A DNA stretch of 64,000 bases from assembly GCA_905178155.1 (NCBI GenBank), contig CAJINV010000009.1, positions 3,635,341-3,699,340 on the forward strand, in the 5' to 3' direction. The position numbers were made by a program, and so were the translations under genes. This document shows, piece by piece, positions 2,412 through 62,404 of this stretch. The notes under the pieces are model-generated. The model saw nothing but the letters and a program-made list of their open reading frames with translations. It ran no database searches and was not told where the DNA came from. The DNA comes from Amoebophrya sp. A120 (Eukaryota > Protista > Dinoflagellata). Within the stretch, counting starts at the first letter, position 1. Every line of letters begins with the position of its first letter.

Positions 2412-5400
2412 ATGGGCGGCTCCTGCAGCTCAGCCTCGTCGTCCTGCTGCCCCTGCCTCTGTGGCGACGGAAGTGAGGATGATGACTTCCTTATCAAAAG
2501 GAAAAATCCCCCCACCCCATATCGAAATGGAAATCTGTGATGCGGGATTTGTGTACACAAATCGGCTTTGTATTGCAGGAAGGCATCGCGGCCAGATCCC
2601 CAGGCTATACAGGGGCGTATCGGTCTAGTTGTTCAGCATGGAAAACGGCTCCGCTTTAGGCCCAACAGCATGACAAATCGCCTCCATAATGGGGGCGAAG
2701 CTTTTGCCCTTGTCTTCTTGCAAGACAGGCGCGATTTGTGACCTCAAATCAGCAGCGCAAATTTTCGGAAACATGCCTTTTCGATATGGGGAGGGGGGAT
2801 TTTTCCTCACAATATTCCTTGCCTTGAACTACAAGAACCGCGGCGTCCTGCGGGGAAACAAGGTCTATCAGAAGTAAAAATGTCTGGGTCTGGAAAGTTG
2901 TGATGTTGGGTGGCATCTCATGATGACATGAGGCTACAAATGCTGGCTTAGCATGACAAGTTTCTGAGCTCCTAGATGTTGCCTATTCTGCATGAAGACA
3001 AACTGCGCTTCTGCATCACAGAAAAGCGGAGCGCTTGGGTAACGTGCATGACAGATTTAAGAGTCATATGCCAGACAAGCATGACAAACATGAACTCTTC
3101 CAGACCCAGACATTTTTACAGTTGATAAGGTCGAGCCTGTTACCGAGATCGACCAGGACTCGGTGATGTTGTTGATTCCCAACCCCGGCGAATTCGGAGA
3201 GGAGGAGGAGGAGGACGAGGATGCAGACGGTACGACGAGCAGTCTCGAGGAGGAAGCTGGGTTAAAAACTGAAGTTGATGGAGGAGAACAAGGTACAGCG
3301 ACAGCTGCTGCAGCAGTAGTTGTTGACCAAGAAATAGAAAGACGACTAGGAGAAAAAATGAAGGAACGCCTTTTGCGCTTCGCCACGGCCGCGCGGGCTG
3401 CTTTGATGGAGAACGAGACTAACGAGAAGAAAGCAAAGGGAAGATTAGGGGAGAACAAGAGAAAGAAGAAAAAGAGGTACATCGACGATGCTTTCGATTA
3501 CAATCCGCGAACGACGGTGGAAGACGGTGCTAGCGATTTCACGGAAGAAGTAGAAGCTGCAGGACATCACGAAGACGACACTGGTGACAGGGCACACGAA
3601 GTGGTGGACATGATACCATCACCCGGCACACCAGCAGGTTTGCACCAGAACAAGAGTGCGAAAAAAATTTCCACCAACAGCCGAACTACTACCACAGCGT
3701 CTGTCGCTAGTCGGAGTAGCGTTAATAGGGATAGCCAACTGCACGACCCACTTCTAGAAGAGCATGCTGTCGACGTTCCAGGACGAGCAAGTTCGAATTA
3801 CTCAACGACTTGGCGCTCCTCACGACTTGGCGCTCCTCAACATCATCCACAAGCAGTGGTAGGTGGCGGGGGGAGTGGAAATCAACAGCATCAACCTGGT
3901 ATTGGCAAGACGCCTCTAGTACCTCATCTTGTCCCAGTTCATGCCTCGACGCGAGAAAAACTACTGCGCGATATCCCGGAAGAAGCGACGTCTTTGCAAG
4001 CAGAGAGCGAACAGGATGCTGGAGATGAAGATTTTTACCACTACCATAATCTGGTCTCTTCGTCCGAGCAGCCCGGTAGTCCAGGAGATCATGGTGGTCC
4101 TACCTCGGCCTCGGAGGAGTTCAAATTCAATTCCGAATTGTCTTCAACGCAGCAACTGTTGCCCTTGAAAATCTTCGAGTTAGTCAGTGCTGGCGCGGAA
4201 CCAGATGAGCAGGTTGTCAGTGAGGAGGAAGATACTAGGCAGGCGTCTACTGGTGATTCTACAGAAGTCCTCGCGGAAGGACAAGAACCGGCCAGAAAAA
4301 TAGTTGTACCGGAATCTTCGCAACAACGAGTAGGAGCAGGAAACGGTGTAGGAGCTTCATCTACAACAACCAGTACCACAACTACTGCAGTAGCAGCACC
4401 AGCAGCTTCAGCAAACTATGCGGATGCGAATGCACCATCGGCAGGAGCGGGTCCTCCTCCGGGAGGAGGAAAACAAGTAGACAAGCAAAAACAAAATCTC
4501 GATTTCTTTTTCAAGAACGAGAGTACCAAGCTGCTACACGACTCCCAGATGATGAATAGCAGACTGGGTGGAGAAGGGACTGGTAATGGCGGAAGAATAG
4601 TAACTGTTGCAACTGCAAGCACAGTCGCCACCTCAAGTGGAGCAGAAGCGGGAACAAATAACACCACCACCAGCAACACAAATTCGTCCTCAAACTCCTT
4701 GCTCCAAACTGCCCTTCTTGCCGCGAGCAGCCCGGAAGACGAAGCAAGTCTCAGTCCCGCGCAAAGTAGTACTAGTCCGGCGGGGGGACTATTTAACGAG
4801 GAGACTACGTCGGCCGCCGCTGGACCTTCTGGGTCTAGTAATAGTGCATTCGTTCATCTTTCTGGAACTGCAACAAAGGAAATTGTGGCGCTGGAGATCC
4901 CCCCTTTGGAGGTGGATGGTGAGGACACGCAATTCAACGCTGGTGCACAAGTCCTAGTAGGTGGGACGAACAGCAGCAAGAACAGCACGGATCATCATGT
5001 CGTTACACTGCGGAACGGAACCACCGGTACTAGCAACCCAGAAGAAGGCTCTACTTTTAGCCGGAGTACTGCGCAAGTGTCGGTCTCGAGCACTATTTCG
5101 CAAGTCACGGCTACTAACACGACCGTCGTGACAGGAGGGGGGCAGCCGGGACGTCAAGAATTTCCAGACGAGGTGACAACTGGTCAGCGTCAGCCTGTTT
5201 CTAACATGTTTACGCGCGACCGCCTGTTGAAGTCAGACACCAGCAACAGCACTAACGCGACTTCGGACTACCACGATCAGTCGGCGCAACTTCGTTCGTG
5301 GGGTGCGGGACAACCACCGCCACTGCAGCCAGCAATTGGATCAAAAGCCCCACCTGTGGCGCTCTCCTCCTCGCCGATGAATAGTGCAACTACTTCTAAA

Positions 5401-6327
5401 AGCAACAAGCGGTTGAACCTGAAGCGCTCGAACAAAAACAGACCGCCGAGTCAGACAGAGCAAGTAGATGAAAATCAAGAGCAGATGCAGATTCCTCCAA
5501 CATCTTCAGAATCACAATCAGACAAGAAGAAAAATCTGAATCTCCTGTACTACCCGGAGGAGGAGTTTTCTTACCCGGCGTCCTCTCAGGAGTCTTGTTC
5601 TGGAGGTGGGGGTTTTTGTTCTACTTCATCCTGTTCCTCGTCCTCTTCCTCCCCAAGCATAGGCAGCGCAAGAAGTGCCAAGACCGATGAATCTTCGCTG
5701 CTGCAAAAAATACACGAGCGCTCATTTGAACCGAATTTGAATTCCTTCTTCGACACTGAAATAGAGAATGGTGTGTGGGGTAATCGCGGCGGCAGCGGGG
5801 AGGTCCTGGAGCAAGGTCTTTCCCGTATTTCCACTACACACGGAGCGACATCAAGAGACGGGCGGGCTTCATCACTACGGCCACCCGGTATTGGCAGTGC
5901 AATGCTTGGAAAAGTTCCATCCGCAACGACACGTGTTCACCCTCCACTAGTCACTTCAATTTTCGGCGACAAAATTGATACTTTTTCCGACGAGGAAGGA
6001 AGACGGCGCCACGAGAAACAAGATTTTGAAGATGATCCTGTCGAAGACGATGAGATGGTCTCTCTGTACTCCCCCTTGAGCAGCGCGGACGAGGGAACAA
6101 TGAAAAACATCACCACCATGCTGAATCAGGACGATGTAGGACCACAACGACGAGGCCGCGATAATTACAACAGACCGCACGAGGACCAACAAGTCGTTGT
6201 AGATCATCCTGACGACCAAAATGCAGCAGCTTTTACCCCCTGCAGTGCGGATTTCTTTTCGCCACAGCGATATATTGTGGTGGTCTCTTCGAGGTCAGTG
6301 TCGGAGGACGAGGAGGAGGAAGAGTAG
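2412..6327 (+). CDS. ~1100-aa low-complexity protein with N-terminal myristoylation/palmitoylation-like motif (3 exons: 2412-2491, 2820-2865, 3133-6327)
   Basis: ATG 2412 follows an in-frame stop. Removing elements 2492-2814 and 2866-3127 (+5 nt each) gives MGGSCSSASSSCCPCLCGDGSEDDDFLALNYKNRGVLRGNKVEPVTEIDQDS, in frame with the 1054-aa ORF 3163-6327. Confidence 0.75.
2492..2814. mobile_element. Introner, family D (TIR TATCAAAAGGAAAAATCCCCC..CCCCATATCGAAA)
   Basis: TSD TTCCT/TTCCT. Confidence 0.9.
2866..3127. mobile_element. Introner, family A (TIR core AAAAATGTCTGGGTCTGGAA)
   Basis: TSD AGGTC/AGGTC. Confidence 0.9.
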
Positions 6328-7225
6328 AACGATAGAACAAAGCAATTAAGGAAACGACTTTTTACCGAAGAGGAAGATGCTGGCACACTATCGCTAGCTG
6401 TTTTGTCGACTAAGATGAAAGTATAGTACTTACTACCTTACAACAGTTTACGCTTTTGACATATTACTTCTACTACTTTATACGAGATTGCTTAACTTGG
6501 ATGATCAGACGCCAGAAAATTAATGTAGATTACAGGCGGCTCCAGCGTGCGACGCGGTGCTCGCTGAAATTGAAACTTGAAGATATTTGTACACACGAAG
6601 GATCTGCATTTGTTGCACGTTTGCTATGTACATTTTTGAGGACACAGACGATCAAATACAAACTCACGCCTGTGACCACTAGGCACGCGTACTTCTTGAA
6701 TGCAGCTGGATTTTTACAGCTAAAGCTATACGCTAGTCAGTCTGCTTTTGATGCGCACCGAAGCGATAGAAATGGCGAGGACATGATGATCTCATCGCTT
6801 CATTATGTGCACCTGTTTCGCTTTTCTTCCTGATGTGATCTTCAGAGCTCGTTCTGTTCGTAGCATCGCGTTGTGGGGAAAGCATTTGCCGTCGAATGTT
6901 TTCGAAAAGGAAACGACACGACTGAACAAAATCGTTATGGTCGTGATCGTGCCCATGGAGTGAGGCATATAGTCTTGTCGTCGACCGTCGTCGTAAAGTG
7001 ATCTTCTTTTGTTACAGGCATGTTGGCAGCTCGTCCTCGTCGATTTTTATAGTTGGCAGTTCGTGCTGCGGGCGCGGATCTTTTCTTGAGCGCATCTTCG
7101 TGGTCGTGATCAGGATTTATCGAAATGAGTAAAAGGCAATGATTTAGATATTCATATTTTTCAGAACGAAGTCGCTCTCTGTCGCCACTACTTGAGAACT
7201 CAGCAGCCAAACTTAAACTTAAACT

Positions 7226-8728
7226 ATGCCGCTTTCCACCGCACTCCAAGACCTCGTGGTTTCCAACGCGGACGGGCGAAAGTGGGTGAAAGACAAGCTA
7301 GCGCCAGTGACACCTCTCGACGAAGACATTGGCATATGAACTGTAAAAATGTCTGGGTCTGGAAGATTTCTTCAACAAGGTTTGTCATGCATATTTCGCA
7401 TGGGCTATGATGCCTGTAATGTATGACCTTGCATGACAGATTTTTTGCGGGTATCTTGATGCCTATCCGGCATGACAAATGCCCTCTCCGCGGAGCAAAA
7501 ACTGCACGCCTCTTGCTGCTCATGCAATACAGATTTTTTTAGATTCCAAAAATAGCATCACAAGTTGCATTCTTCCAGACCCAGACATTTTTGCAATCCA
7601 TATGGCAGATACGTGGACAATGTGCAGGCGATCACTTTATGCATTGCAAAAGTATTTCGTACTAGCGTAAATCGCATCACAAATTTTTCCGAGAGAGAAA
7701 GTGTAATTATTAATTTGTAATGCTGATTTCCCTTACCTGATGGATTTGTCATGCGACACGGCGATAATTAGAAGTACGAGCGCGATACTTTTGCACTGCA
7801 TACACCTCGAACGATGACAACGGCCTAGTGGACGATCTGGATGATGCAGCCGATTTCACCACAAATCTGCTCTCCAACATCCTGAATCGTATGAAAAGTG
7901 GAAATACAAAAAATCATCTTGGATCAAGTTGTGGGGCCGCGAAGTTGAAGTAGGTGGGTGAACTTCAAGTGGATACTGGTTGCAGAATGTGAATGTTGTA
8001 GTTTGATGTGGCGCTACACCTACCTAATAGAAGTTGAAGTTCTACAAGAAACACCTACGACGCTGCGTCATTCATCTTATGTGATGTGCCTGCACCCACT
8101 ACACTCGCGTAGTGTAGCCTTGCCTGCTTCGGTTGTAATGCCTGTTTTTCTTGATTCAACTACAAAATTTTCTTCCTCATATCCACCTTCGGTATTTTCG
8201 GAAAAAGTACCAAAACGGGCCATTACAAGTACTTTCGGGTCTTCAAGATTCCGAGCAACGGCTATCCACAGTGCTTGAGGTTGAGTTTCCCGTACGCCTT
8301 CGCAGAAAGAAGTGCTGTTTCTGCGTAATGACGATCCTATTCATCAGCATGGCAATTGGTGGTACACAACCCGCCTAAGTTGGCGAAGTTTGTCATGCAT
8401 TTTTGTATACGTCGACGTCGCCCTCGATGCGTACGGGAAATTTGTATTGCATACCAGCAAGCCGTTGCGAATGGCGGGCCGGAATAACGACGAATTTCTC
8501 GGGAGGTGCCAGTACTGGTTTGGCCGGGACAGCGTAGAGCCAGCAGCTCCTGTGAAGGGAGGCGGCGCCGATGCCAATGCGCCTACTGCGGGAGGAAACG
8601 CGGTGAAAGAAGATGGTGGAAACGCGGAGGATTTGGAAGCTTGTCAGCTCTTTCATTTGCGACTCGGTGAGCCGCACATCGCACCGACAAACCTGGTGCG
8701 AAACTACTTCAGCGGGTTTTTTCTATGA
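7226..8728 (+). CDS. Hypothetical protein, 5 exons
   Basis: MPLSTALQDLVV...DEDIG|RYVDNVQAIT|SNDDNGLV...ILNR|FGIFGKSTKTGHYKYFRVFKIPSNG|KPLRMAGRNNDEF...YFSGFFL* stays open after removing 4 elements +5 nt. Confidence 0.65.
7335..7602. mobile_element. Introner, family A
   Basis: TSD TGGCA/TGGCA. Confidence 0.9.
7638..7802. mobile_element. Introner, family B (TIR core GCAAAAGTATCGTACTCGTA)
   Basis: TSD CACTT/CACCT. Confidence 0.85.
7890..8181. mobile_element. Eroded introner-like intron
   Basis: TATGA...TCATA; TSD decayed; +5 removal in frame. Confidence 0.5.
8263..8453. mobile_element. Introner, family H (TATCCACAG..TTTCCCGTAC / GTACGGGAAATTTGTATTGCATA)
   Basis: TSD ACGGC/CCAGC; +5 removal in frame. 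Confidence 0.7.
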
Positions 8729-9154
8729 TGTTGATGAGAAAATTGAAAAAGATAAAGATGCTGAGCAGATAGTGATAGTGAGCTGCAGGCAAACAACCGA
8801 GCGTCAGAATCTCTTTTAGTTTCAGCAATAAGCTGCTCCACGTCGTGGTCGTGAGAAAACCTACGAGGTAGGACGAGTCGCTACTGTTGAAAATGGCTTG
8901 TTGACACCTACTTCATCACAGGCGCCTGCTGAACAAGTATGCTGAGCGTGGAGATGAATGCGTCGTGTTCATCGTTATGTTCTGATGTTGTTCTTCTTCT
9001 TACTCTTAGCTTGCGCGATATCTGGCTGTTGTCCTCGTGTGTCGTACACTACGTCCGAAGAACTGCGGTGTTGATAAAATGGCAGATGGTAGGACACTGC
9101 CACTGTACTAAAAGACAAAGAGGATACCAAGGAGAACGATGATGCGTTTTGAGC

Positions 9155-9155
<1 letters not shown>

Positions 9156-9204
<49 letters not shown>
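9156..9204. repeat. (GT)24 microsatellite
   Basis: Perfect GT dinucleotide run. Confidence 0.98.
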
Positions 9205-9206
<2 letters not shown>

Positions 9207-9516
9207 TTCTTCTAACTTGCCCGGCTGTGCCTATTGCAGCTACCACCAGAGTTGTTGTGGTGCTACTGGCAGAACAGAACCGCCAGCCGTACCAATCTTG
9301 TTCTGTAGTTCCTACTTGTGTAGTTCTCGTGTCAGAAGTAGTAGTGCCAGTTCAAGTTTAAGTATCAAAATAACTACGCTTGCTTGCATCGCGCCGTTTC
9401 ATTCGTACGCACCTAATTTTTTCGACTCGTCGTGGCTACCTCTACCAGCACTTCTATAATTTGTCTTGCATGAAGACCACGAACCCGGACGCCTCGTCCA
9501 CGATCGCTTCAAGAAG

Positions 9517-12500
9517 ATGTTGCCGGAAGACCTGAACCCGGGGAACCGTGACTACAAAACCGTGCCGCTTCTTTCCGCAGACGAGCAAAACCGGAATCAA
9601 GAAAGGGAAGGCCACAACGACCTCTCTGGCGCAGCTTCTAGTAGTTCCAGACCTGCTAGAGGTAACGACACCTCCGACGTGGGTCCTTCAACATCCGTCG
9701 CAAGCGCGGCCAACACCCTATCCACAGAAAAAAACCCATCCACATCCATTTTTTGCATGACAAACACATCCATTTTAAGTTTATAAACGAATGGGACGCC
9801 CTGCCCTTAGCCTTCCAACATGACAAACACATGATTTGATACGTGTTCTGCATGACAAATTGGATACGGATGGGTTTTTTTCTGTGGATACACCCACACT
9901 TCCGACGATACCCGGCGGACGAAACAGAACATATCAAATGTAAAAATGTCTGGGTCTGGAAGAATGCAACTTGTGATGCTGCATTTGGATGTCTAAGAAA
10001 TTTGTGTTGCGTGAGCAGCAAAAGGAGTCTAATTGTTGGTACGCGGAGAGGGCATTTGTCATGCGGAATAGGCATCAAGAATCCCTGAAAAAGATTGTGA
10101 TGCTAGGGCAGGCATCACAGACATCATGGCTCATGCAAACCGTTCATGACAAGTCTCAGAATCTTCCAGACCCAGACATTTTTGCATTTGATAGAACACG
10201 AATACCAGCAAGTCCGGTGGTAATTTATTCCCAGTCGGGGGCGGATCTTCTGCCGCCGGATCATCTAGTAGCTCCTCGTCCTCTTCGAACAGTTCTTCCA
10301 GTAATCGCGAACCCCCCTTGGACATCCGGGACCCCTACTCGCTGCTGTTTTCCCAAACCGCCAGTACCATGCCGTGGGTGTTTCATCTGCAACAGCCGGT
10401 CGAGCAGGATGCCGCTCTGGAGGATTATGTCCTGGAGGAAATTGTGGAGGAATATCCAAAGGAAAAGAATAGATAAACCCATGATCCTCTCAGAAGTCTC
10501 AATGCACGATTTCAATTTCTGCATGACAAAAACAGGTTCTACTTCTGGTTTGGCATCACAAATTGACTGGAAAAGTGGGAGCTTCATCTTGTTCTTTCTG
10601 AGGATGCTAAAGAATCGCTCGCGCACACCGACTCCGTTGCCGTCGTTCTGGATGAACAGAAAACCAATCTGCTGCGCGACATCGACGGAGGCGAGTATAG
10701 TGGCACAAGAACTGCAGGAGGGGCAGCTCCTGCAGGAGATCAAGAGCCAAGTGCTCCTTCACTACAGTACGACCCCTTCACACTCCTGACGAACCAGCAA
10801 TCTTCGCTGCTAGTACCTGCGTCCTCCTTCCGCGCAGGACAAGAGCAAGCACATGCCCCAGCGGGGAAGGGGATCACGAACTATTTCAGCCCGCCGTTTC
10901 AGCTGCTAGAGCGGCAAATGCAGCCGTCAGATTCTCAAAGAGAAACGAGTGAGGAAGACGTTGCACGCGGGGGAAAGCGACAGGCGCCGGGAACTACTGC
11001 TGCTGCTTTTGCTGGTGGCACTACAACCAGTATAACAACTTCTACGCAGTACCACCTGCTTCTCGAGCCGCCGAAAGACTCAGTGCAAAGTACTACGCAG
11101 CAAACCACACCGAGTAAGCAGTACCGGACCGTGCAAATGCAGCATCTGGACGACAACACATTGAGACTGTTGGAAACGCGAGCGCACGACGTTTTAGCAG
11201 AAAAACATCCGGAATTTGAAATGGACATCGATTTTCGCAATGACCATAGGGAGGTGGACCTGCAGCTGCAAATTGTTTCCGACGGGGGCGGAGAACAGGT
11301 GGACCACACTAGCCGGGGGTCCACGCCGCGAGGGGGCGCAGGCGGTGGTAATAAAGCGTCTTTCGCTTATTTCCCCCCTCCGTCAACTTCGTCGTCGAGA
11401 AAATTTTTTGTCGCCGGAGCTCCTGCAGGGGATAGCACCAGCAGTCGTGCATTGTTGCCAGCCCCGACCTCGTCGGCGACTCCGCGCGGGACCAGCACGA
11501 GCTCCACTGCAATGGCTGCTGGAGGTGTATATGGAAGCGTCAGGTTTGAAATCGTCAAAGTTGAAACGGTTTGTCATGCATAAATTGCAAGACATGAAGC
11601 GCCTCTCTTGCAGGGATGGCAAGTGAGGCAGATCGTGAGCCTATTTAGGGTTTGGCATAGAGCTGCTAAAGGAGCATGACAAAAGCAGTCTTCTGTGCCC
11701 AAACAGCATGACAAATTGGATTCCGTTGCTCCGAGAATTTGCCATGCGCCGCTTGGAAATTGGGCTTCCAACTGGTATCCACTTTATGCATGACAAATCA
11801 TTTCAACTCTGTCGATTTCAAACCTGACGCTTCCATAGTGTAGTTGACGACAGTAGTGCAGTTGTTGGACCCACCGCGGCCGCCCCGACTGGAGGTGCAA
11901 CCACAACCGCGGCTTTCGTGCCGCATGGGACATCTTCGTCCTCCTCGACGCATCAGCGACGGAGAACACGGTCAAAGGACGGTGCCGCGCTACACATCGA
12001 CACGTCTGCGATATCGTGTGGAAAATCGATGTTTGTATGACGAGCGTCTAGAAGTGCAAACCTTAGTGTTCAATTCTGCTTTTCCCTGCGACCTCCTGCT
12101 GCTTTCTTGATGACCAGGTCGTGGACGAGTTTTGTAGTTGCTCGGCGTTTTTAATATATATGATTTCGAACACGATATTCTATGTTAACCACCAGTGCGG
12201 GCTCCCACGCAGGAGCGCCCGCTCGCGGTCGAGGATCCTCCAGAGCGCACGGAAGCTCCTCGGTGACCAGGCAGCTCTCCTCCTCACCGCATGGCGGGTC
12301 GGTGGTATACGCGGAAAAGAAGACGAACTTTGTGGACTGGTACCACTGATGAAGAAAGCTGCAAGAGTCGATTTTTTTTTTATGTTGTCCACATAATCGG
12401 TTTCGGTAATCCAGTTCGAGTGCTGCAACGAACTAGTGATTGATGAATGACGACGAACACCAAAATCAAGATCAACCCGAATAAACATGCGCTCTTTATT

Positions 12501-23047: not shown

Positions 23048-23426
23048 TAGCAGCGCCACCTTCTGTTAGTTTGAATGAAAGAAAGAGATGCAACTAAGCA
23101 CGACGATATGTCGAACCAGTCGGACATCTGTTCATGCTGTCTGCACTGCAGTTTTCCAACACGTGCGGGCAGGGGTTTGGGTTTGCACTGAATTTATTTT
23201 CAAAAGCGCCTTATATTATGTATGCAATTGCATTTGCAAGTTGTGCACTTATTTATATTTTACGCGGTTTAGTTCCGCTTCTCCTGTAGCGCTTCCCCTT
23301 CGGTAGTATGGTGACCGCTCTCCGCACACGCGATTATCTATCAGCCTAACGACTCGGGGGGAAAGGGCGTCACTAGGTTCGCTGCCTCAAAACAACTAAC
23401 TTGGCTTTGATAAGTGAGACGAAGGT

Positions 23427-51405: not shown

Positions 51406-53560
51406 ACAACATTCATTTAATTTTAAGTACTTTTACTTATCATGCGACGTAGAAGCTCCAGTTCGTCACGAACACGAACACTCAGGGGGTTGCAAAGATA
51501 TCTGTCATGATGCACACAATGTCATGGGCAAAATAAATTGTCACTACAGTCAAATATCATGGTTGTTCATCCCTAGTAGTCTTTTGCGAAAATACTTTAA
51601 TACAAGAAAGGCTGCCGCGATGTGAAAAAAACTTTTCATGCCTCCAAACCTGCAGCCTAGCGAGGGTACGAAAAGTACGACATGATATTGAGGTAGAATG
51701 GTCGTGCCAAAGCCAAAGATAATTATTACCTTTCTACTGTAGGTACATGTACGTCCAAGACGCAAAGCCACGCAAGAAGCCGCTTTCAATCATTCTTTTT
51801 CTTCAAGTCTGAATCACAATCACTATCTATAGTTTTGTTCAGTTCTCTTATCTTTTCCTGATCTTCTTGCACTAAGTGAACTCATTTTTTTGTCGATTAA
51901 CGGTGAGGTCGACTGCTCGGCGGAGCCTGTAGCTATAGTTTCTGTTTCATCATCTTGTCAAGCCGAAGCCATATTTTGTTTCTACAACTTTCTTGCTCGT
52001 CTAGGTCTTTCTCATATATACGAATCGTTTATATTCATTTTTTAAATTACTTTCGAAGCTTGTTTGCCATTCTAGCAGTCGTGCTTTTCCAAAATCCATC
52101 GGGATGTTTTCTGAACAATTGTAATTCTTGAAGTCGCAGATTCATATGCATATCCTTGAAACCCGAGGTGTGCTGCTGTTGTATCAACACGCTTCAAAAC
52201 AAAGACATTGCTCACTTTTTTTCATTCCAACAATAGCAGTCGAAGTCTGTCCCGTGGCTGATTTAACCCGATGAGTATCCTTGTGCTTGTTGGTCATCCC
52301 CAAGATGAACAGTATGCGGTCGATAAGCCCCCCAAAAGTTTTTTCGAGTAATTCTAATTTTTTCAAAATGTGACTGTTCCTGTTGCGCATAGAATTTTTC
52401 GTGTTCACCGCCCGCTCGCTGGTCCATTTTGATTTTCGACCGCGACTCGCATTCCTCAACTTGTTTGTTGAAGATAGATGATGTGCCAAACGCACAAATT
52501 AAAATTATCGGTTATAGTCTACTCCCAACTCTAGCACGCTTGTGGTCCTTGATGTGATGCTATATGAACATGATCTGGATCCTCGGTCTTCAATATTGAG
52601 ATGACTAAGCCAATGTCAGATGAATCGGACGAAGATGTCGACCACCTCATTTGTCTACTTCATATCGATGATAGATCCTGAACCATTCAAGATCTACTTA
52701 GATCTTCTAAGCTGAAGTGTAGTCTATGCTGGTCCTGCTCCTGGTCGGCAGCGGGTTCTAGCAACGAACCCGCCAAAAAGCTGGTGCATAATTTTGCTTT
52801 GATTGTCAAAGTCCAAAGTCGGATTGTCTTACTTCCAGGAGGCCCTCTTGTCAGTTTCGCTTTCGGTGGATATAGTCAGTGGTGTAAAATTCTAATATTC
52901 TCGGTCCTGAACAACTACACTACAAGTGAAAGACGCGAGAACTGTGCTGTCGGTTTGCTCCTTATCATCTGGTGGTATTTGCAGTTGAGAAGTGTAGAGT
53001 TGGCACCACCTGGTGTTGGGTTGTACAAAGAATAGAACCTCCTCTCCAGCAGCATTTCGAATTGGTTCATTTTCAATTACGAAATGTTTAACCGCGACAG
53101 GAGGAAATCTACTCGCAGCCTTCAACATATGAAGTAGCCGCACGGCTTCTGATTAAAAAACTCTCGCCAAAATATTTTTTCTTTCCTATTGATTTTGATA
53201 GATTTTCCTACAACATTCAGCGACTGAGCAGCAGTCTGTCTTTCGACGTAATAGAAAATAAAATTGCTTTCGATTTATTACATTCAGTTCAAGGCCTTCG
53301 TACTATCGCAATCCCGGAGGTCTCTCCTCAGGTTTTATGTCACTAATAGTGTAGAAGTAGACCAGCACTAGTAGTACAGCTGCAAAAACACGACGCCTGA
53401 AGTAGACGGGGGAGAGAACCAGCACCAGAAATAAACGCAGCTTCACAGCACAAGCAGCAGCAGCACGAGCTGCACCAGCAGGGAAAACCTACATCAAAAA
53501 GGAATCAACCTAGGTGTCTCCTGCACCACGATCATAGATAGGACGGTGCTAAAATCGAAG

Positions 53561-56500
53561 ATGAAGTTGCTCCATCATCATCTTCGTGCAGCTTATTTGC
53601 TCGCTGCCGCCTCGTGGTGCACGACCTTGTGGAGCTCTTCTTTCATCTACGACATTGCTGATGAAGATCATCTCCCGCTCGCCTCTTTTTTGACATCGAC
53701 TTGTTTCCTCCTCGTCCCGTCCGTATCCGCAACAGGGATGGCACGACACACGAAATTATGCCTTGGACGGTCGTTAGCGTACAGAAGGGTGAATTTGCAG
53801 TGAATTTGTATTGCATGATTTGCATTTACTTAAAAGAGAAATTCGCTACGTATGGACACGAGCCCAAGCATCCCACATAGCCTGGAGGGCTGCTCGTCGC
53901 GTGGTGGCGCTTGCAGCACCAAAAGAGGTGGTCTTGCGGGGGCTCGCCGGGCTGTGTAGTGCGTATTTAGCGACCAGAGGAGATGGGTCGGGGGGCTCTT
54001 ATTCTTCTGCGCGTCTGCCTCAGAAGTTCCTCTCCGGAATTGTCGAAAGGCAAAGGGAGGGCGACGCCTGAACACAGGGGCACCCACTAGCTCAACACGT
54101 ACGCTCTCACGACTTTTGGCTGTGGCGTGGAGTTGGACATCTCGGAGTAGCCTCGGGTGGAAGGCACGACTCGGCCGTCTGGGAGGAAGTTGGACATCTG
54201 GGAGGTGCTCCAAAAAGCGCGCGGGTAGGCCCTGGGAAGTGGGGCCGAGGGGAAAAGACAAGCACCCTCTGTTGCCCTCGGCCCGTCTATATTCTGCCGA
54301 AAAGGCCTGGAGGGTTCACGCGCGCGCCTGCCGGATAGACGCGTCAAAGCCCTCGGCCTGGTCCTTTCGCCCTTGCTTTCGCGCCTTCGTCTTTGCCGCG
54401 GCTGTTGCAGTGCTTGCTCTTCTGCAAGCACAGGGAGACGAAAAGATATGGCCAAAGAACGACGCCCAGGCCATGTCCAGCTGTCCGCCGCATACCCTGC
54501 GAGTTCTGCGGTGTACAGACCGCTCTTCCCAGAAGGGCAAGAGGGACAATGTCCCGGCAGTCTCCTCTGCTATTTGTCATGCAAAATTCACTAGAGATTC
54601 ACGTCACCGCGTCTCATGCTAACGCGTGTTAAAGCTCTAACATCTTTCCTCCTCGTCCCGTCCGTATCCGCAACAGGGATGGCACGACACACGAAAAATA
54701 AGAATGAACGAGCTATGAAAGCCTCAGGTTGGAAATCCTCAAAGTGAAAATTTGTAATGCAGAAAAACGACTCCAGTTGAAGCACCATTTCTAGTCGGCG
54801 CATGACAAGTTTCCCGGGGACTCAAAACGTGTCTGTCATGCTAGTTAGGCAAAGGGGTGCCCTTCTGTCGTGCTAATCAGCAGCCCAATTCTGAACCCGT
54901 AGAAGCACAATAGTCGGCCTCCATTGCGTCCTCTGCAATACAGGGCTTTTTCCGTCGCATTTCATGCATCACAAATTATTTCCACTTTGAGGATTTCCAT
55001 TCTGAGGCGTTCATACGAGCACGAGGAGGGGAGGATGAGGATCAAGATCGCGATGACCTCACGGCCGCGGCCAGGACGACCCACGAGGACCCGTCGCTGT
55101 GGTCCCCGCCCGGCGGAAAGGATGTTCACGAAGATATCCAAGAAAAAAACAACATCACAATCACAGTTGGGAAGTTTTGCATCAGAAATTCGGGTCGCAT
55201 AACATTTTTTTCTTGTATTGCAAAAACACAAAGGAAAATTGCCCATAACTCTTGACTGTGATGCAGTTTTGCGCATGACAAAAATTTTTGTATTGCAAAA
55301 CTGTGCAAAAGTGATTGTGATGGTGTTTTTTTCTTGGATAGAAGACCTCGAGGTTGTAAAAGTCCCCGCGGCCACGTTTATTTCAAAAAGAACTCAGAAG
55401 AAGCATCAAAAAGAAACCTGGTTTCAGAAACTCCAGAAGACCTTCACGGCGACGGTCATTACCATGCGCGACAAGTGCGGAGAGAACAGCATTTCTGGTC
55501 CGCCGTACGACGAAATCGAGTTGTTACCGCCGGCTCCACGACCTGGTAAAGACGTTCTTGCGAGGACCGCGCCTAGCGAGCGGATAAATTTTCTCCAGGA
55601 TCGTGAAGAAATTTTCTCTCTTTTCTTCCCTGCCGACCCTGTGCCTGTAAAAAACCAGCCGCATGTATGGAAGCGTCAGGACTGAAATCGTCAAAGTTAA
55701 CCAATAATTTCCCATGCATAAATTGCAAGGCATGAAGTGCCTCTCTTGCAGAGATTGCAAGCGAGCCCCACTGTCAGCCTGTTTCGGGTCTCCTCTGATA
55801 TAGCTGCTAAAGTAGCATGACAAAAAACTACGCCCCCTGTCCCTCAACAGCATGACAAACTGGACGCAGACGGTGCCGAAATTTGTCATGCACCGCTTGG
55901 GAATTGGGCTTCCAACTGATGTCGATTTTATGCATGACAAACTATTTCAACTTTGACGATTTCAATCCTGACACTCCCATAGCATGCGAAACTGTTCCTG
56001 GGCGTCATGCCGATGATTTGGGGTGATCACCTCACCGAGCGTGAAGGTCAGTCGTTTTTTTCGGAGGTCTATCCAAGGAAAATAAAAGTGATACAGTTCT
56101 TACACATTGACATTTGATTGTAGTGAAAAGAATTCAGCATGACAAACTTTCCTTGCATGTCAGAGAAAACTTGAAATGCAGAGATGAAGATCATAAGGCA
56201 AAACACAAACAACAAAGGAGGCTTGCAAGCATTTTTTGCATGATAAAGGTTGTCTGTGATGCTTGTCCCGCAACACAATGTAACACTTTTATTTTCTCGC
56301 GATAAGGTCGGTATGTGGGACAGCTTCCTGAGCAAGGACGGCGATGGTGAGAGGAAGAACCGGCTTTGCTATCCTGTGCAAAAGTATCGTACTCGTATTG
56401 CAATCATGCATTACACGTCTTTTCCTTAAGGTAAATTCGCAGTACAAGTTTCATTTCTCATGCTGAGGAAATTTGTAATGCATTTATACGAGTACTATAC

Positions 56501-59500
56501 TATTTACACTTTATATTTGCAGACCCTTTTTCGAATACAATCTGCTGATTCGGGAAAATATCGGAATGTTTGTCAGCTTCAATAACATGCAAACCGAGAC
56601 CGCTTATCTGCCGTGGGGCAAGTATCACCAGGACTTTTACGGAGAATTTTCGACAAGAACCCCAACAACTACTACATCTTCTAGTGCTAGTAACAAACAG
56701 CAGGACCTCGACCTCCAGCACAGTGAGCACTTGCTCTGCACGCCGGAAACGAAGTTGCAACCTCGGGACATTACATACGGCATGCATGCTATCAAACAAA
56801 AAAAGTTCGTCACGATCACTCATGCGCATTTTTGCAATACAAAACTGTTTGTCATGCGTAAAAATGCATCACAGCCAAACTTTATTAGGGATTTCCCTAG
56901 TGTTTCTGCAATACAAGGAAAGTTTGTGATGCTAAGAAAATTTGTAATGCAAACCCTGCAAATTAGTGACTGTGATAAACTTTTTTCTCTCCATACATGC
57001 GGCACCGGAGGCGTTTTTCTACGGGCCCCGCCAGCGCCATTTTAAGCAGCACCAGTTTTGCCAATACGACCACTATATCCTGTGCAAAATAAATGTCTTG
57101 GTCTGGAGGAATTCATGTTTGTCATGCTTGTCTGGCATGATGACTCTTAAATCTGTCATGCACGTTACCCAAGAGCTCCGCTTTTCTGTGATGCAGAAGC
57201 GCAGTTTGTCATGCAGAATAGGCAACACCTAGGAGCTCAGAAACTTGTCACGCAGCTGAGCCAGCATCTGTAGCCTCATCATGAGACGCCATCCAGCATC
57301 ACAAGTTTCCAGACCCAGACACTTTTACATTTGATACACTACCCGCTCACCCTGGACCAACTGCACCGGGCGGCAGATTCTATCTTCCAGGCCCTGAATG
57401 ACAATCGCAATACCTACGTCCACTGCAAAGCTGGAATGACGAGGAGTGGCATGGGGGTGATTGCTTTTTTGCTCAAGCACGCAACCTGTGCTTTGGGCGG
57501 AGTGAATTCCAGAAGCCCCACATTGGCGGAAGCAGTGGCTTACGTGACTACGATGCGACCTGTGTCCAATGTCGCCGGGAAGGAGGAGCAGCTGCGTATC
57601 AAAAGGAAACATCCCCCCTCCCCATATCAAAGCGGTATAATTCCGAAAAATTGATGCGTTGCTGATTTGAGACCACAAATCACGTTTGTCTTGCAAGATG
57701 ACAAGCGCAGAGGCTTCCGCGCCATTATCGAAGCGATTTGGCATGCTGTTGGGCCGCCTAGGGGGCGCCCGTAGTTTGTAGTAATGCTAAACAACTAGAC
57801 CCAGACGCCCCTACCTAGGCTGAGGATCTGGCTGCGAAGATGCCCTACTGCTGCAAGACAGCGCGCATGTGTGTGCGGGGGAAATCTTGCGCCACAGATT
57901 TCCGTCTTAATGTGGGGAGGGGGATTTTTCATTTTGATACTGCGTCGACTTGTGGAGTTCGAAAAGGACGTCGCGTCTGCTTATCAAATGTAAAAATGTC
58001 TGGGTCTGGAAACTTGTGATGCTGAGTGGCGTAGCATGAGGAGGCCACAAGTGCTGGCTCAGCATGACAAATTTCTGAGCTTGTAGGTGTTGCCTATTCT
58101 GCATGACAAACTGCGTCTCCGCATGACAGAGAAAAACGTCTCCTGGGCAATGTGCATGACAGATTTAAGAGTCATGCCAGACAAGCATGACAAACATGCA
58201 TTCTTGCAGATGACTCAGACACTTTTACATTTGATACTGCTAAAAATAGTGCAGCTTCAGAACAAGAAGATGGTCACAAGTGGAGAATGGCGATCTCTTG
58301 CGACGTATCCTGTGCAAAAGTATCGTACTCGTCGTAGTAATCGCAGTCATGATGCATAATTGCAAATTTGTTTGTCAAGTTAAATCCGCATCTCATGCTG
58401 GGGAAATTATTTGTCATGCGATTTATACTACAACGATGCCTTTGTATTTCATACGACGGTCACTTTCGTTTTCTAGAAGTCAAGGGAGTAGATGTATTGT
58501 TCTATTCCAAGAAGAACTACGCCTACTATGGAAGTGTCAGAATCGAAATTGACAAAGTCGAAAAATTTGTGATGCGTAAAATCTACACCAGCTGAAGCCA
58601 GAGCCTCAGTTTGTAAGTAGCGCATGACAATGAATTTCAGGAGCCCTCAAAGCCGGTACGTCATGCTGTTTGGGCAAAGAAGACTGCTCCTGTCATGCTA
58701 CTCTGGCAGCACATTGCATAACCCTAAACAGGCTTGCTGCAATCGGTCCCATTTGCCTGCCCCCGAATTATGCAGGCCTCCAGTGCAGCCCTGCATTTTA
58801 TACATCACAGATTTACTTTCGATTTTGTCGATTTGGATCCTGACACATCCATACCTGCAAGTTCTATGATTATCAAAATGATCATGGCGTTGACAAAAGA
58901 TTTGTTGATATGCAAGAAAAAAACTGTGTAAGTGTATAGTTTCCGGGAGGAATAGCATCACAAGTTTGCTCTGCATGACACAGAAAACTTGTCATGCGTA
59001 GATAGTACTTGAAAACAAAACACGTACAAAAATAGCCCCTGATGCATGTCCAGCATGACAAGTGCAACAGTTTTGCATTTTCTGCAACACAAAGTTACAC
59101 TTTTTACACAGTTTTTTTCTTGGATAGTTGAGCGGGGGAAGATGAAGCTGTATCGGCTTATCCTTCGCTTGCTTACGAAGCCTCCGATGACGGGATGGAG
59201 GTTATCCAATGCAAAAGTATCGCACTCGTCGTATCTATAAATGCAATACAAATTTCCTCAGCATGAGAAATAAAATTTGTAATGCGGATTTAACTTAAGA
59301 ACAAGATTTGTAATGCATGACTGCAATACGAGCGCGATACTTTTGCGCAGGATAGAGCTCGTCCGACGTTGATCCGAGTGCTTTCCCGGACGCGGATGAG
59401 GAACGCAATTTGAAAATATCAAATGTAAAAGTGTCTGGGTCTGGAAGAATGCAACTTGTGACGCTGTCTTTGGAAGGTAAAAAAGGCTCTATTGCATGAC

Positions 59501-62404
59501 CAGAAAGAGGAGATCAGTTTGTGCTACGCGGAGTGGGTGTTTCTCATGCGAAATACGCAGCAGAAGACCCTTTAAGAATCTGTGATCCTCGGCCATGCAT
59601 TACAGGCATCATGGGTTATCCAAAATATGCATGACAAACCTGGGAATCTCCCTGACCCAGACACTTTTGCACTTGATAGAAAAAGCGGATCGACAAGGCC
59701 GTGGCCAACGACCCTCGGAAGCTGCCGTGGCGTATGGAAGTGTCAGAATCGAAATTGACAAAATCGAAAAATTTGCGATGCGAAAAATCGTTGCCAGGTA
59801 GACCCACAGTTTGTAGTCGGCGCATGACAAATTTTCCCCGTCCTGGAAGCGAATCTGTCATGCGGTTTAGAGCAAAAGTGCTGTCTTCTGTCATGCTAAT
59901 CAGCAGCCCAATACTTGACCCTTGCCAGGACTACAATCCGCCTTCCTTGCATCCTCTGCAAGAGAGCCGCTTTTTGTGTAGCATTTTATGCATTACAAAC
60001 TTTTTCGACTTTGTCGATTTCGATCCTGACACTTCCATATGGCGGCTGGCCTCCGTACTGCGCGGCACGCTCCGGAAAAATATCGCCGTGGCGAAGAAAA
60101 CTGGCAACTTTTTCACCCGGCGCTTTGAAAAGAAGCACGACAGCTCCGCCGCCGCCCCACAGCAGGAGGAGAAGATCGATTGGAAGCTGGGCGTGTTTGC
60201 CCGAGTGATGGTCGAAGAGAAGCAGAAGCAGGCTACTTCTCTTATCACAAGAAAAAGTGTTAACGTTAACGGATTTTGTGATGCAGAAATGCATCACAAG
60301 ACGTGTCAGAATTTGTCATGCATAGCATGCATATTGGGCTACATTTGTGATGCATGACTGCAATCTGTGAAAACCGTTAACGTTAACACTTTTTCCTGTG
60401 ATATCTCTTGCAAGTACTTCAACTTCTGCTGGAGGGGGTGTCAAAAGTGAAGTAGAAGACGCTCTTGTTGCAAACGACTCCACGACCTTAGATGACCGGT
60501 CGACGACAGTGGGCAGCGAGGACGACGGTCGCAGTACAACTAGTAGCACTGGTCGTGGTGCCGGTCCAGACGAGGCGGAGCAATATCCTGTGCAAAAGTA
60601 TCGTACTCGTACTAATCGAATTCATGCAATACAAATTTCTTTCTCACGTCAAATCCGCATTACAAATTTTCTTTCTCATGCTGACGAAAGTTGTCATGCG
60701 ATTTATACTAGTACGATGCTTTCGCATTTCATAAGCAAGAAGATGAAACAAGATCAGACGCGCTTGCCGCGGTCGTGGATGAAGTTGTTCACGAAGGTCA
60801 GCAGGACCACATCTATCCATAGAAAACAAAACTATGTGAGTGTAAGTCTGTGATTATGCAAAGTACGCAACAGCACATACACAGTGACAGTTCTTAGTAC
60901 ACCTCCTGTTTATTCCATACGCCGGCCTCCAGCCATCAACTCCTGTTTATTTTTCCATATGTGTTTTTTTTTTGGCGTACAACGAACTAGCTGCGCATCA
61001 TGACAGGTCGTTTTCTCGGTCATGCAGAGAAAATTTGTCACGCCGTTAGTACTTCTTCAAGAAGACAACAACAAACACACAGTTTTTGTCGTGGATCACA
61101 TCAAAGACGACATCAGTGCAAATAAAGCTCCCGGGCCGGATCTGGAAGTCGCGGCTCGCGAGGTGGATCAAATCAAAAAAACAAATACGAAGCATGGGGA
61201 ATTATACGATCTGCTGGATGCGGCCAACACGGACTTCCCGGACGAGCATATGAAGGTCCTTGCGCACCATCAGCACGAGAACAACTTCCTTGCGCATCAC
61301 GAAAACTTCCAGACGCTTCTCGACCCGCATCTCCTCCAACCTGCTGTATATCACGACAGTAGCAGCACAGCGAGTAGAGATGCGACGAACCATGTTGAAC
61401 CAACTGGGGGCACGGAACCCAAAATTTCAATTTATAATCTGCACATTCAGCTGAAGCTCCCGACGGAAGAAGTATCCTGTGCAAAAGTATCGTACTCGTA
61501 CCAATTGCATTTATGCATTACAAATCTGGTTCCTAAGGCAAATCCGCATTACAAATTCAATTTGTAATGCTGAGCAAACTTGTAATGCAATTCATACTAG
61601 TACGATACTTTTGCAGTTCATAAGAAGAAGATCCAACTGATACGAGTACTACTAGTACCAGTCACGACACGGTAGCTGCCCAGGACGAGGCGTCGCATGG
61701 TCACGAAAAATTTCTTGAGATATCCAGGAAAAAAATAAAACACCCATCCCCATCCACCAAGAATTTGTCCTGCGCCAAAACATGCATAAATTTAACTAGA
61801 TATATTTTTCACGTGGTGTTTGTCATGCAAGAAACGGATGGGGATCATGGGTGTAGTTTTTTCCTGGATAGGAGATGACCGCTGCGCAGCTGTACAACCT
61901 AATTTTCGCAGTATTCTGCGCAAAAATGTTCCCACGACCCCAGAGTCAAGATGGGAAATTTTTTTTGCCCGGCCCCCAATTCTTGCATCATTTAATTATG
62001 CTAGTCGGGGCGGTGAGAAACAGAAATCTGCTAGACAAATCAGCCAGCTTTATTGGGTGTTGCGCATGACAAGAAGCTTGCCTTCGTAGGTAGGGTCTAC
62101 TTCGTGATCCCGTTAAGCTAGTTCAGCAGAGTCACAGATTTCGCATATTATGCCGATTGGAGCATGAAAAATACCAAAACAGGACTAGAAGACACTTCAT
62201 CTCATTGCGCTCCGCATGAGAAACATTTTGAGCATGCAGATTCGCATGACAGCTATGGGTTCGACGTGGGGATGTTTTTACATAGGATGCGCAGCTTTAA
62301 AGGAAGACCAGCCAGGGCTCGAAAAGAGCCTGGATGAAGTGGGTGCTGGGACGGCATCGCCTGCTCCACCGGCAGGAGCAGCAGCAGCACAGGGGGAGCC
62401 ATAA
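53561..62404 (+). CDS. Dual-specificity/PTPMT1-like phosphatase with signal-like N-terminus and long C-terminal extension (paralog 2); about 22 introner introns
   Basis: KLFLGVMP...MFVSFNN...QYDHYPLTLDQL...NTYVHCKAGMTRSGMGVIAFLLKH...EAVAYVTTMRPVSNVA...QLRRLVEF. The final exon ends at TAA 62404; not every intermediate junction was translated. Confidence 0.8.
53757..54639. mobile_element. Composite introner-like element with GC-rich cargo, flanked by a 52-bp exon duplication
   Basis: Subterminal inverted similarity (GTGAATTT..GCATGA / TCATGC..AAATTCAC; GTTAGC/GCTAAC); direct repeat 53704-53755 = 54645-54696. Confidence 0.6.
54714..55015. mobile_element. Introner, family C-like
   Basis: TSD CGAGC/CGAGC. 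Confidence 0.85.
55135..55340. mobile_element. Introner, family G
   Basis: TIR TATCCAAGAAAAAAACA.CATCACAATCAC; TSD GAAGA/GAAGA. Confidence 0.9.
55666..55981. mobile_element. Introner, family C
   Basis: TSD GCATG/GCATG. Confidence 0.9.
56070..56304. mobile_element. Introner, family G-like
   Basis: TSD AGGTC/AGGTC. Confidence 0.85.
56370..56515. mobile_element. Introner, family B
   Basis: TSD TTTGC/TTTGC. Confidence 0.88.
56790..56995. mobile_element. Introner, family G-like
   Basis: TSD CATGC/CATGC. Confidence 0.85.
57076..57336. mobile_element. Introner, family A (reverse orientation relative to 2866-3127)
   Basis: TSD CACTA/CACTA. Confidence 0.9.
57597..57939. mobile_element. Introner, family D
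   Basis: TSD CTGCG/CTGCG. Confidence 0.9.
57982..58236. mobile_element. Introner, family A
   Basis: TSD CTGCT/CTGCT. Confidence 0.9.
58306..58453. mobile_element. Introner, family B
   Basis: TSD CGACG/CGACG. Confidence 0.88.
58527..58853. mobile_element. Introner, family C
   Basis: TSD CCTAC/CCTGC. Confidence 0.88.
58909..59126. mobile_element. Introner, family G
   Basis: TSD GTTGA/GTTGA. Confidence 0.88.
59203..59354. mobile_element. Introner, family B
   Basis: TSD GAGGT/GAGCT. Confidence 0.88.
59417..59678. mobile_element. Introner, family A
   Basis: TSD GAAAA/GAAAA. Confidence 0.9.
59733..60039. mobile_element. Introner, family C
   Basis: TSD TGGCG/TGGCG. Confidence 0.9.
60243..60403. 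mobile_element. Introner, family E
   Basis: TSD TCTCT/TCTCT. Confidence 0.9.
60584..60733. mobile_element. Introner, family B
   Basis: TSD AGCAA/AGCAA. Confidence 0.9.
60814..61097. mobile_element. Introner, family G-like (diverged)
   Basis: TSD ACATC/ACATC. Confidence 0.75.
61473..61622. mobile_element. Introner, family B
   Basis: TSD AGAAG/AGAAG. Confidence 0.9.
61721..61870. mobile_element. Introner, family G
   Basis: TSD TGAGA/GGAGA. Confidence 0.85.
61912..62289. mobile_element. Introner, family I
   Basis: TSD CGCAG/CGCAG. Confidence 0.8.

Follow-up and report, generated by a model that had tools for sequence, protein, structure and literature searches.

A fixed excision register for the TAT...ATA inverted-repeat introner elements in genes of Amoebophrya sp. 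A120

The DNA analysed here, referred to as the window, is a stretch of 64,000 nucleotides (nt) of the Amoebophrya sp. A120 genome (contig CAJINV010000009.1) whose genes are interrupted by elements with terminal inverted repeats (TIRs) and flanking target-site duplications (TSDs). One exon of an eEF3-like gene is 100% identical to the annotated protein P0001 (1270 aa), which is named Amoebophrya sp. A120, and the elements are the introner elements (IEs) of this strain (Farhat et al. 2021), a system that is already known and to which a preliminary description of the window had correctly attributed them. In total, 83 elements were found: 81 on a curated list, a nested copy at 16039-16645, and one at 46957-47388 that was first recognised from an RNA length sum. 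Degenerate copies were added by reading the whole window, and a doubtful remnant at 10470-10609 is kept outside the 83. The 85-90 elements counted previously were of the right order and slightly too many.

The 82 non-nested elements measure 145-781 bp (mean 242). A strict scan of the window for TAT...ATA elements with a perfect 5-bp TSD and a TIR match of at least 13/20 returned 44, and a second strict count gave 43 in the real sequence versus 0 in 3/3 shuffles. A detector that ignores the terminal triplets made 60 calls, 59 of which are on the curated list, and none in 3 shuffles. Among the 81 curated elements, 77 start with TAT, 75 end with ATA and 71 do both; the TSD copies agree at 5/5 positions in 53, at 4/5 in 15 and at 3/5 or fewer in 13, so that 68/81 have at most one mismatch. 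All-against-all BLAST of the 82 elements gave 35 clusters, nine of them multi-member (the largest with 18 and 16 elements; one of the nine is inflated by the nested pair). The TAT...ATA ends with 5-bp duplications noted for nearly all elements were thereby confirmed.

Deletion of each element together with 5 nt yields long frames on the + strand for an eEF3-like gene, an amino-acid permease, gene A, two genes with a dual-specificity-phosphatase domain (DSPc; genes B and C) and a low-complexity gene. The eEF3-like ABC-F gene (26715-34533, +) encodes 1270 aa once two GT-AG introns and 16 elements are taken out, and its model is supported by ABC_tran matches, P0001 and spliced contigs of the sequencing runs X3 and X4. 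Its elements, all read on the + strand like those of the following genes, lie at 26878-27029, 27086-27245, 27578-27726, 27763-28159, 28204-28366, 28542-28803, 28878-29203, 29353-29497, 29839-30090, 30156-30430, 30554-30789, 31435-31599, 31889-32145, 32648-32795, 33368-33518 and 33816-34117; a 3' untranslated region (UTR) of ~1.1 kb follows the frame. Gene A (38381-45383, +) has a 725-codon frame after removal of one GT-AG intron and 20 elements, 18 of which are covered by a joint or piece end (not those starting at 39316 and 39534): 38663-38892, 39005-39182, 39316-39481, 39534-39798, 39867-40060, 40235-40525, 40688-40914, 40969-41210, 41606-41891, 41930-42096, 42224-42435, 42704-42971, 43011-43296, 43365-43608, 43701-43865, 43904-44057, 44149-44409, 44487-44720, 44787-45032 and 45063-45270. 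No Pfam match was obtained with the two gene A exons tested. About 1 kb upstream of its frame (37320-38386) is transcribed and contains many short frames and stops, as a long 5' UTR.

Gene B (46514-51402, +; DSPc E 9.6e-10) has an 869-codon stop-free frame, is covered by X4 pieces and carries elements at 46957-47388, 47651-47986, 48336-48622 and 50120-50460. Gene C (54601-62401, +; DSPc E 9.2e-10), modelled by its 913-codon frame, carries 21 elements at 54714-55015, 55135-55340, 55666-55981, 56070-56304, 56370-56515, 56790-56995, 57076-57336, 57597-57939, 57982-58236, 58306-58453, 58527-58853, 58909-59126, 59203-59354, 59417-59678, 59733-60039, 60243-60403, 60584-60733, 60814-61097, 61473-61622, 61721-61870 and 61912-62289. 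The two DSPc genes (47482-51402 and 54601-62401) are adjoining paralogues that share an HCKAG motif and 77% identity over 73 nt, and their element positions differ. The permease gene (12777-18254, +; AA_permease_2 E 7.9e-7) shows a 786-codon frame after removal of 11 elements, located at 13134-13395, 13475-13725, 13802-13952, 14168-14338, 14621-14770, 15386-15648, 15995-16775, 16813-17110, 17221-17393, 17473-17783 and 17839-18092. The nested element mentioned above (607 bp, of another family, with a long TIR and its own TSD ATTGT) sits within 15995-16775, and 781 nt have to leave here as a single intron or in two steps.

Four ordinary introns (+) occur in the same genes. Two belong to the eEF3-like gene: 31143-31358, which ends in CCTAACTACAG with a branch-like A at -7 (length sum 648), and 32909-33078, which ends in TCTGATCAG (length sum 479). 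The third, at 41279-41482, is seen as joint 41276>41481 and shows GT...AG when the cut is moved by +2. The fourth, of 866 nt at 49177-50042, is placed by the frame and by an X4 piece ending at 49173; its GC-rich repetitive interior contains a G run and is overlapped by a low-depth unspliced X4 contig.

The transcript data are contigs (Logan) of runs X3 and X4, two samples of one study that are RNA by guess. The region 26000-45990 was compared with runs X1, X3, X4 and X9, and the region 38600-51500 with X3 and X4. Wherever a joint or a length is shown, the element and 5 nt are skipped; this applies to all 38 such elements (38/83), called RNA-read in the following. At the level of single joints, 23/23 element joints among those listed lose exactly this length (6 listed for 26000-45990, 14 listed for 38600-51500 and 3 taken from contiguous pieces), and the joint 38657>38893 fits likewise, where positions 1-1309 of a 1486-nt X3 record end at 38657 and position 1310 starts at 38893. 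In record coordinates, the lengths removed across the eEF3-like gene are 1644, 778, 648 and 479 nt, each as predicted, and the sum for gene B is also 778 nt, as predicted. Reading frame could not have decided this point: removal of 5 and of 2 additional nucleotides both preserve the eEF3 frame, whereas the RNA lengths tell them apart.

X3 and X4 contigs skip elements and GT-AG introns alike, and a single contig skips all 16 elements of one gene. X4 also contains two low-depth unspliced contigs, 42983-43326 and 49705-50069. Run X1 passes through introns and intergenic DNA without differences and has a depth of 0 at 6 listed joints, some X1 joints being left out of the count. The raw-read run X9 gave only 16 partial reads on element sequence and is uninformative. 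The 'element + 5 nt' rule proposed from the letters of the window therefore agrees with all 23 element joints, with 38657>38893 and with five exon-length sums, and the retention of elements in the transcripts, which would have made the genes pseudogenes, was not borne out, since the contigs skip the elements and P0001 equals the spliced model. In the spliced models, the conserved motifs at the four junctions that had been cited are restored as WLTYSGGWRMKMQ, TFGGGVIMVSH, FNVSGGPWGSE and SGWDCVSTIAG.

The rule is cruder than the data allow. With a perfect TSD the cut is ambiguous over six positions, and imperfect TSDs break the tie. The only cut compatible with all 23 element joints is the one after TSD base 4. 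In the 15 RNA-read elements with an imperfect TSD, the transcript has the left-copy base at positions 1-4 (5/5, 7/7, 7/7 and 4/4 cases) and the right-copy base at position 5 (6/6); full joints are available for the position-4 cases 27763 and 44487 and for the position-5 cases 38663, 40235 and 44787, and the remaining position-4 and position-5 cases are read from piece ends with leftmost placement. An old element at 27763-28159 (+), whose TSD has decayed to GGGGG/TCCCG, retains left-copy bases 1-4 at joint 27761>28164, so that the intron is 27762-28163. For 44487-44720 (+; TCCGT/TGGTT), joint 44485>44725 in X3 and X4 allows a cut after base 4 or 5 only; for 44787-45032 (+; TGGAC/TGGAG), joint 44781>45033 in both runs allows bases 0-4 only; for the old element 40235-40525 (+; CATTT/CTCTC), pieces 40232>40529 allow base 3 or 4 only; and at 38663-38892 (+; TCGCG/TCGCA) the right copy is kept at position 5. 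At 50120-50460 (+; GGAGG/GGGCA), an X4 piece starting at 50465, not a listed joint, allows base 4 only. A further old element, 30156-30430 (+; GAATT/ACCCT), has a weak TIR and no predicted end-to-end helix; 280 nt are removed here, according to the length sum of 778 and residue 463 of P0001. The spliced eEF3 model and P0001 are identical at every residue only if the cut is placed after TSD base 4 or 5.

The intron is accordingly N-TAT...ATA-NNNN, cut one base before TAT and four bases after ATA. A cut after TSD base 4 places TA at +2/+3, as in a GTA donor, and an A at -7 (+1 and -1 being the first and last intron base), and at each of 24 joints, one GT-AG intron included, exactly one shift gives TA at +2/+3 plus A at -7. 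In this register GT starts are found in 20/81 and AG ends in 7/81 curated elements and GT-AG in 0/81, which upholds the view that GT-AG is not needed. The remnant 10470-10609 (TAG...CTA, TSD AAGAA) does not follow the rule as judged by frame: removal of element plus 5 nt fails to join the frame (471 codons), whereas an AT...AG intron of 144 nt at 10469-10612 (+), one base shorter than the rule, gives 605 codons. This candidate exception, placed by frame only, is possibly a hybrid of an element donor and a canonical acceptor.

Which bases of the ends are conserved was studied in a larger set. The collection metagenome_contigs was scanned with the inner TIR motif lacking the triplet, which gave 151 stretches, of which 148 loci were used (545 kb). 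Their DNA differs from the window, with one 65-nt match outside elements, and near-full-length locus matches exist for 56/82 window elements at a mean identity of 84%. Triplet-blind detection in the window and the 148 loci returned 420 elements; 335 were oriented by a codon model, 84 were not orientable and one is nested. Three of the 335 were dropped as false (at least 3/6 triplet mismatches; two without T at +2; one within a long exon at ~5520), leaving 332. TAT starts 320 of these, and a mirrored T run at -15 to -18 is present in 80-96% of elements.

The triplet positions of the 332 elements are changed in unequal numbers: 0 at +2, 2 at +3, 10 at +4, 4 at -7, 5 at -6 and 14 at -5. The T at +2 differs in this respect from its TIR mirror, the A at -5 (0 versus 14, p=1.2e-4; 0 versus 11 in the loci alone), and from the T at +4 (0 versus 10, p=0.002); A at +3 versus A at -5 gives 2 versus 14 (p=0.004) and A at -7 versus A at -5 gives 4 versus 14 (p=0.03). 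The asymmetry between +2 and -5 tracks the coding strand, with 0 versus 3 changes in 111 plus-strand and 0 versus 8 in 159 minus-strand locus elements. In a stricter set of 304, with none dropped, it is 0 versus 11 (p=0.001), and no other end-to-end difference reaches p<0.05 within the first 30 TIR positions. In 5/332 elements the base at -5 cannot pair with +2, and since the T is kept there as well, the U matters as a base and not as part of a pair. In nine old RNA-read elements mismatches have accumulated at 26/45 TSD positions and 47/108 inner TIR pairs and triplet changes at 0/54 positions. Altered triplets do occur in 5/38 RNA-read elements (TAC three times, ACA and ATT once each), so single changes are tolerated.

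The canonical signals, on the other hand, are at chance level. GT starts 102/332 introns, with G at +1 at coding background and not enriched (p=0.36), AG ends 32 (31.5 expected), and GT-AG is found in 8/332, or 16/332 under any equivalent shift. A purine at +1 is mildly raised (203/332 versus a background of 0.536, p=0.006), and the first exon base is a purine in 199/332. A yeast-like G at +5 shows no orientation bias in the expected direction. At -7 an A is present in 328/332, in a TTGAT context in 102. An invariant branch A at this position was considered and rejected on account of four exceptions (L002:2873-3123, L003:6194-6527, L062:3398-3669 and L108:291-543), so that it is a preference only. 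A drift of the intron-side TSD copy to G at +1, suggested by 5/7 cases picked by eye, was likewise given up: the blind set contains five changes to G and five from G.

On balance we favour, with some reserve, a relaxed spliceosome that no longer depends on G(+1) or the 3' AG but continues to recognise U(+2)A(+3). Whichever way round the element is inserted, the TA at the start of its TIR would replace the UA of a GUA donor. The position of the 3' cut would follow from a constant spacing to the terminal ATA, the first A of which (-7) probably serves as the branch nucleotide, and the TIR hairpin may contribute by holding the two intron ends close to each other. Since the removed length includes the equivalent of one TSD, splicing returns the coding sequence to its state before the insertion, wherever an element lands, and the elements would thereby be able to spread through exons. 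The yeast P complex has U(+2) paired with U6 A51, G(+1) paired with G(-1) and A(-2) paired with the branch A, according to the part of the structural report used here (10.1101/212811; this and the other papers cited are represented by parts of their text). In view of the G(+1)-G(-1) pairing, a joint loss of G(+1) and AG with U(+2) kept is structurally coherent. The earlier proposal of one precise mechanism for all families stands insofar as one register fits them all without GT-AG; it has to be amended in that removal is not blind to sequence, with an invariant U at +2 and triplets kept in old copies. That a single mechanism is at work is suggested by this shared register. A sharper version, to which we would give slightly less than an even chance, is one code, N-UA(U)...A(U)A-NNNN, for a spliceosome without U1, G(+1) and 3' AG that keeps only the U(+2) contact and cuts 6 nt after the branch A of the terminal triplet.

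Several points speak against this spliceosomal interpretation. It is built on the register and on base conservation; a lariat, a branch point or a dependence on small nuclear ribonucleoproteins was not observed. The A at -7 differs in 4/332 elements (3 G, 1 C), which is not significantly fewer than at its mirror +4 (4 versus 10, p=0.18), and it is found in only 2/4 GT-AG introns. A branch there leaves 6 nt, fewer than the consulted passage on the yeast structure implies (10.1101/212811). No orientation bias towards the 3' end was seen for the branch-like TTGAT (57 versus 37 in the opposite direction, p=0.049), and none towards the 5' end for TATG or TATCC. U1 was not found in Amoebophrya according to the available text of PMC7789003. 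The codon model was trained on the window and mis-oriented 2/53 confident window elements. Piece ends underlie 3/6 position-5 and 2/4 position-4 cases, every RNA-read gene is on the + strand, and the assembled contigs, from a single study and of guessed RNA status, render minor alternative cuts invisible. Finally, a helix joining both ends is predicted for 89% of 80 folded elements, with the triplets paired in 69%, and such predicted pairing would fit a hairpin-guided process.

This leads to the first rival, an excision as in Euglena, in which paired UAU/AUA triplets with fixed spacers of 1 and 4 nt are recognised by a machinery that is distinct from the GT-AG spliceosome and releases circular products. 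The architecture is the same as in the Euglena code 5'-N3CDG...CH'GN5-6|R, which is tied to a MITE-like origin (miniature inverted-repeat transposable elements) and to circular RNA in the sections of PMC12501133 used. The two triplets intact in old copies (0/54 changed), the predicted end-to-end pairing, the lack of enrichment of G at +1 and of AG and the missing U1 (PMC7789003) all point in this direction. However, none of the three triplet pairs is intact throughout: they are disrupted in 5, 6 and 11 of the 332 elements, RNA-read ones included. The end-to-end helix is absent in 7/80 elements, four of them RNA-read, and in five further RNA-read elements (27086, 30554, 40235, 40688 and 45063) the inner helix is shifted by 2-5 nt with the distance between cut and triplet unchanged. 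The sole invariant base falls exactly where a spliceosome reads U(+2), and 10469-10612 may be an NT...AG hybrid, which would suit one shared machine. We regard a Euglena-like machinery as rather unlikely.

A spliceosome with U12-like recognition (5' RTATCC and relaxed terminal dinucleotides, read by undetected, divergent U11/U6atac-like RNAs), or one with a hairpin-placed 3' site and a deeper branch point, seems to us improbable. U12-type introns have the 5' consensus RTATCCT and the branch consensus CCTTRAY. N-TATC over +1 to +5 is present in 218/332 introns and the purine at +1 is mildly enriched, as such recognition would have it, but the full RTATCCT is found in 23/332 and CCTTRAY within the last 40 nt in 1/332, the 5' bias of TATCC is not significant (34 versus 23, p=0.19), and U11, U12, U4atac and U6atac are reported as absent in the accessible part of PMC7789003. 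The last alternative, that the joined forms come from empty alleles or from exact excision at the DNA level in the cells sampled, the window genes being pseudogenes, could appeal to the guessed RNA status of X3 and X4, but it is largely refuted already and hardly credible, because GT-AG introns are missing from these contigs too, the contigs combine bases of the left and the right TSD copy in a single register tied to the strand, one contig skips all 16 elements of a gene, X1 has no depth at the 6 listed joints (with the reservation on uncounted X1 joints made above), and P0001 equals the spliced model.

If the one-code form of the relaxed spliceosome is true, the symmetric TAT/ATA ends turn every insertion into an intron that can be removed perfectly, whatever its target and orientation, and N-T-A would likewise apply to strain A25 with its TTA ends and TT-NN sites. 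The register explains why insertions at arbitrary exon targets in either orientation are harmless. Although the elements are published, their recognition is not, and a fixed register replaces 'variable, unknown borders' with an exact rule by which tens of thousands of A120 intron borders could be re-annotated. It also makes the question of excision directly testable, since it predicts the 5' nucleotide and the branch position of a lariat, the single changes that block excision, and differences in U6. Amoebophrya would represent either a second paired-triplet-plus-spacer code beside Euglena or the most reduced donor and acceptor requirement of a spliceosome.

As to their origin, the elements show features of MITEs, namely TIRs, a TSD of fixed length, no coding capacity and nesting, with a median of 261 bp in the metagenome loci. 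They are probably DNA transposons of the MITE type, mobilised by a transposase that was not encountered in the present data. The motif GCAT[GCT]ACAA, with 156/163 occurrences inside elements, is a putative transposase-binding repeat. No autonomous partner with the same TIR was found in the 545 kb of metagenome loci, where the longest copies have only 972 and 1104 bp, with longest stop-free frames of 86 and 238 aa that were not compared with protein families; a TIR pattern search of viral_contigs gave no match. Three long TIR copies (L018:505-1608, L071:6014-6985 and L048:3862-4492) look like ordinary elements lengthened by inserted non-TIR DNA, and the insert in L018 is built of short GAGAGG-like repeats.

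The remaining genes of the window are less well defined. The low-complexity gene (2382-6324, +) has a 1116-codon frame and elements at 2492-2814 and 2866-3127. A gene at 7223-8725 (+), with elements at 7335-7602, 7638-7802 and 8263-8453, has a frame that is not closed and probably contains one further intron. The gene at 9460-12346 (+) carries elements at 9719-9890, 9932-10193, 11530-11837 and 12012-12177 in addition to the remnant 10470-10609, and a (GT)n microsatellite (9146-9204) lies upstream of it. Another element (24637-24905, TSD TGCCA/TTCCA) is located downstream of a frame at 23418-24287. Between element-rich genes, two overlapping + frames of 300 and 530 codons (stop to stop; 19522-20424 and 20336-21928) are devoid of introns and elements, and 19522-21928 is possibly an inserted mobile or viral-like segment. 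Upstream of gene C, an exact 52-nt direct repeat (53704-53755/54645-54696) surrounds a GC-rich stretch, and the adjacent 65 nt (53753-53817) match metagenome locus L057 at 89%. All modelled genes are on the + strand, like the unidirectional clusters described for Amoebophrya.

For strain A120, the available text of PMC7789003 describes inverted-repeat (IR) families whose TAT start is followed by seven variable positions and then three or more A, and gives the direct repeats as 3-5 nt long (5 bp according to the legend of Fig. S19). It reports 29,850 RNA-supported IEs in 1954 families, with non-canonical introns of ~240 nt on average, and nearly all spliceosomal proteins as present. No clear splicing signature is reported there: with respect to the hairpin the splice sites are called 'variable', and the border positions 'unknown'. 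A four-base repeat upstream of the 5' end is also remarked upon, which agrees with the register found here. In its Table S4, 9/9 predominant non-canonical motifs of A120 are NT-NN and 9/9 of A25 are TT-NN, which is explained by the fixed register. The IR with TAT start and A run, the 3-5-nt repeats, the repeated families and the removal without GT-AG are all seen in the window elements, and what differs from that account, as far as its available parts go, are the single register, the invariant U at +2 and the measured chance level of GT and AG. Gozashti et al. 2025 (PMC12130899; 32/58 A120 rows) list families of 150-320 bp, mostly 'TIR DNA' of superfamily 'Unknown'. These rows resemble the window elements in their type and their largely non-canonical annotated sites and differ in TSD calls of 2-6 bp or none, gt/gc/ga/at starts, mixed gain mechanisms and the absence of a single register. 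The portions of the reviews PMC11282704 and PMC11453091 used here give no register, nor did we find a fixed one in the parts covered of the literature on Amoebophrya and non-canonical introns, where Figs 3, S19 and S23 of Farhat et al., Roy et al. 2023 and Henriet et al. 2019 might bear on it. As far as our literature searches reach, the 4|1 register with its invariant U at +2 is an unreported refinement.

Outside Amoebophrya, the sections of Nomura et al. 2025 available (PMC12501133) describe Euglena nonconventional introns with complementary triplets at fixed spacers, no GT-AG and a MITE-like origin beside GT-AG introns, as here. The Euglena code itself is not present in the window elements: it combines the motif CDG/CH'G with a purine in the exon and with N3 and N5-6 as spacers, whereas here TAT/ATA goes with N1 and N4 and a single base, U at +2, is invariant irrespective of its partner. 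In Fritillaria borealis, MITE-derived introns with TIR and TSD are removed by an altered U2 spliceosome, according to the text available of PMC11282704 and 10.1101/2025.08.15.670264; their ends are mostly AG-AC and AG-AT, in contrast to NT-NN without any 3' dinucleotide preference in the present elements. From U2-type introns the elements differ in having no required G at +1, no terminal AG and no selected branch consensus, and they share with them the U at +2 (332/332) and the A at +3, next to four GT-AG introns in the same genes, three of which start with GTA.

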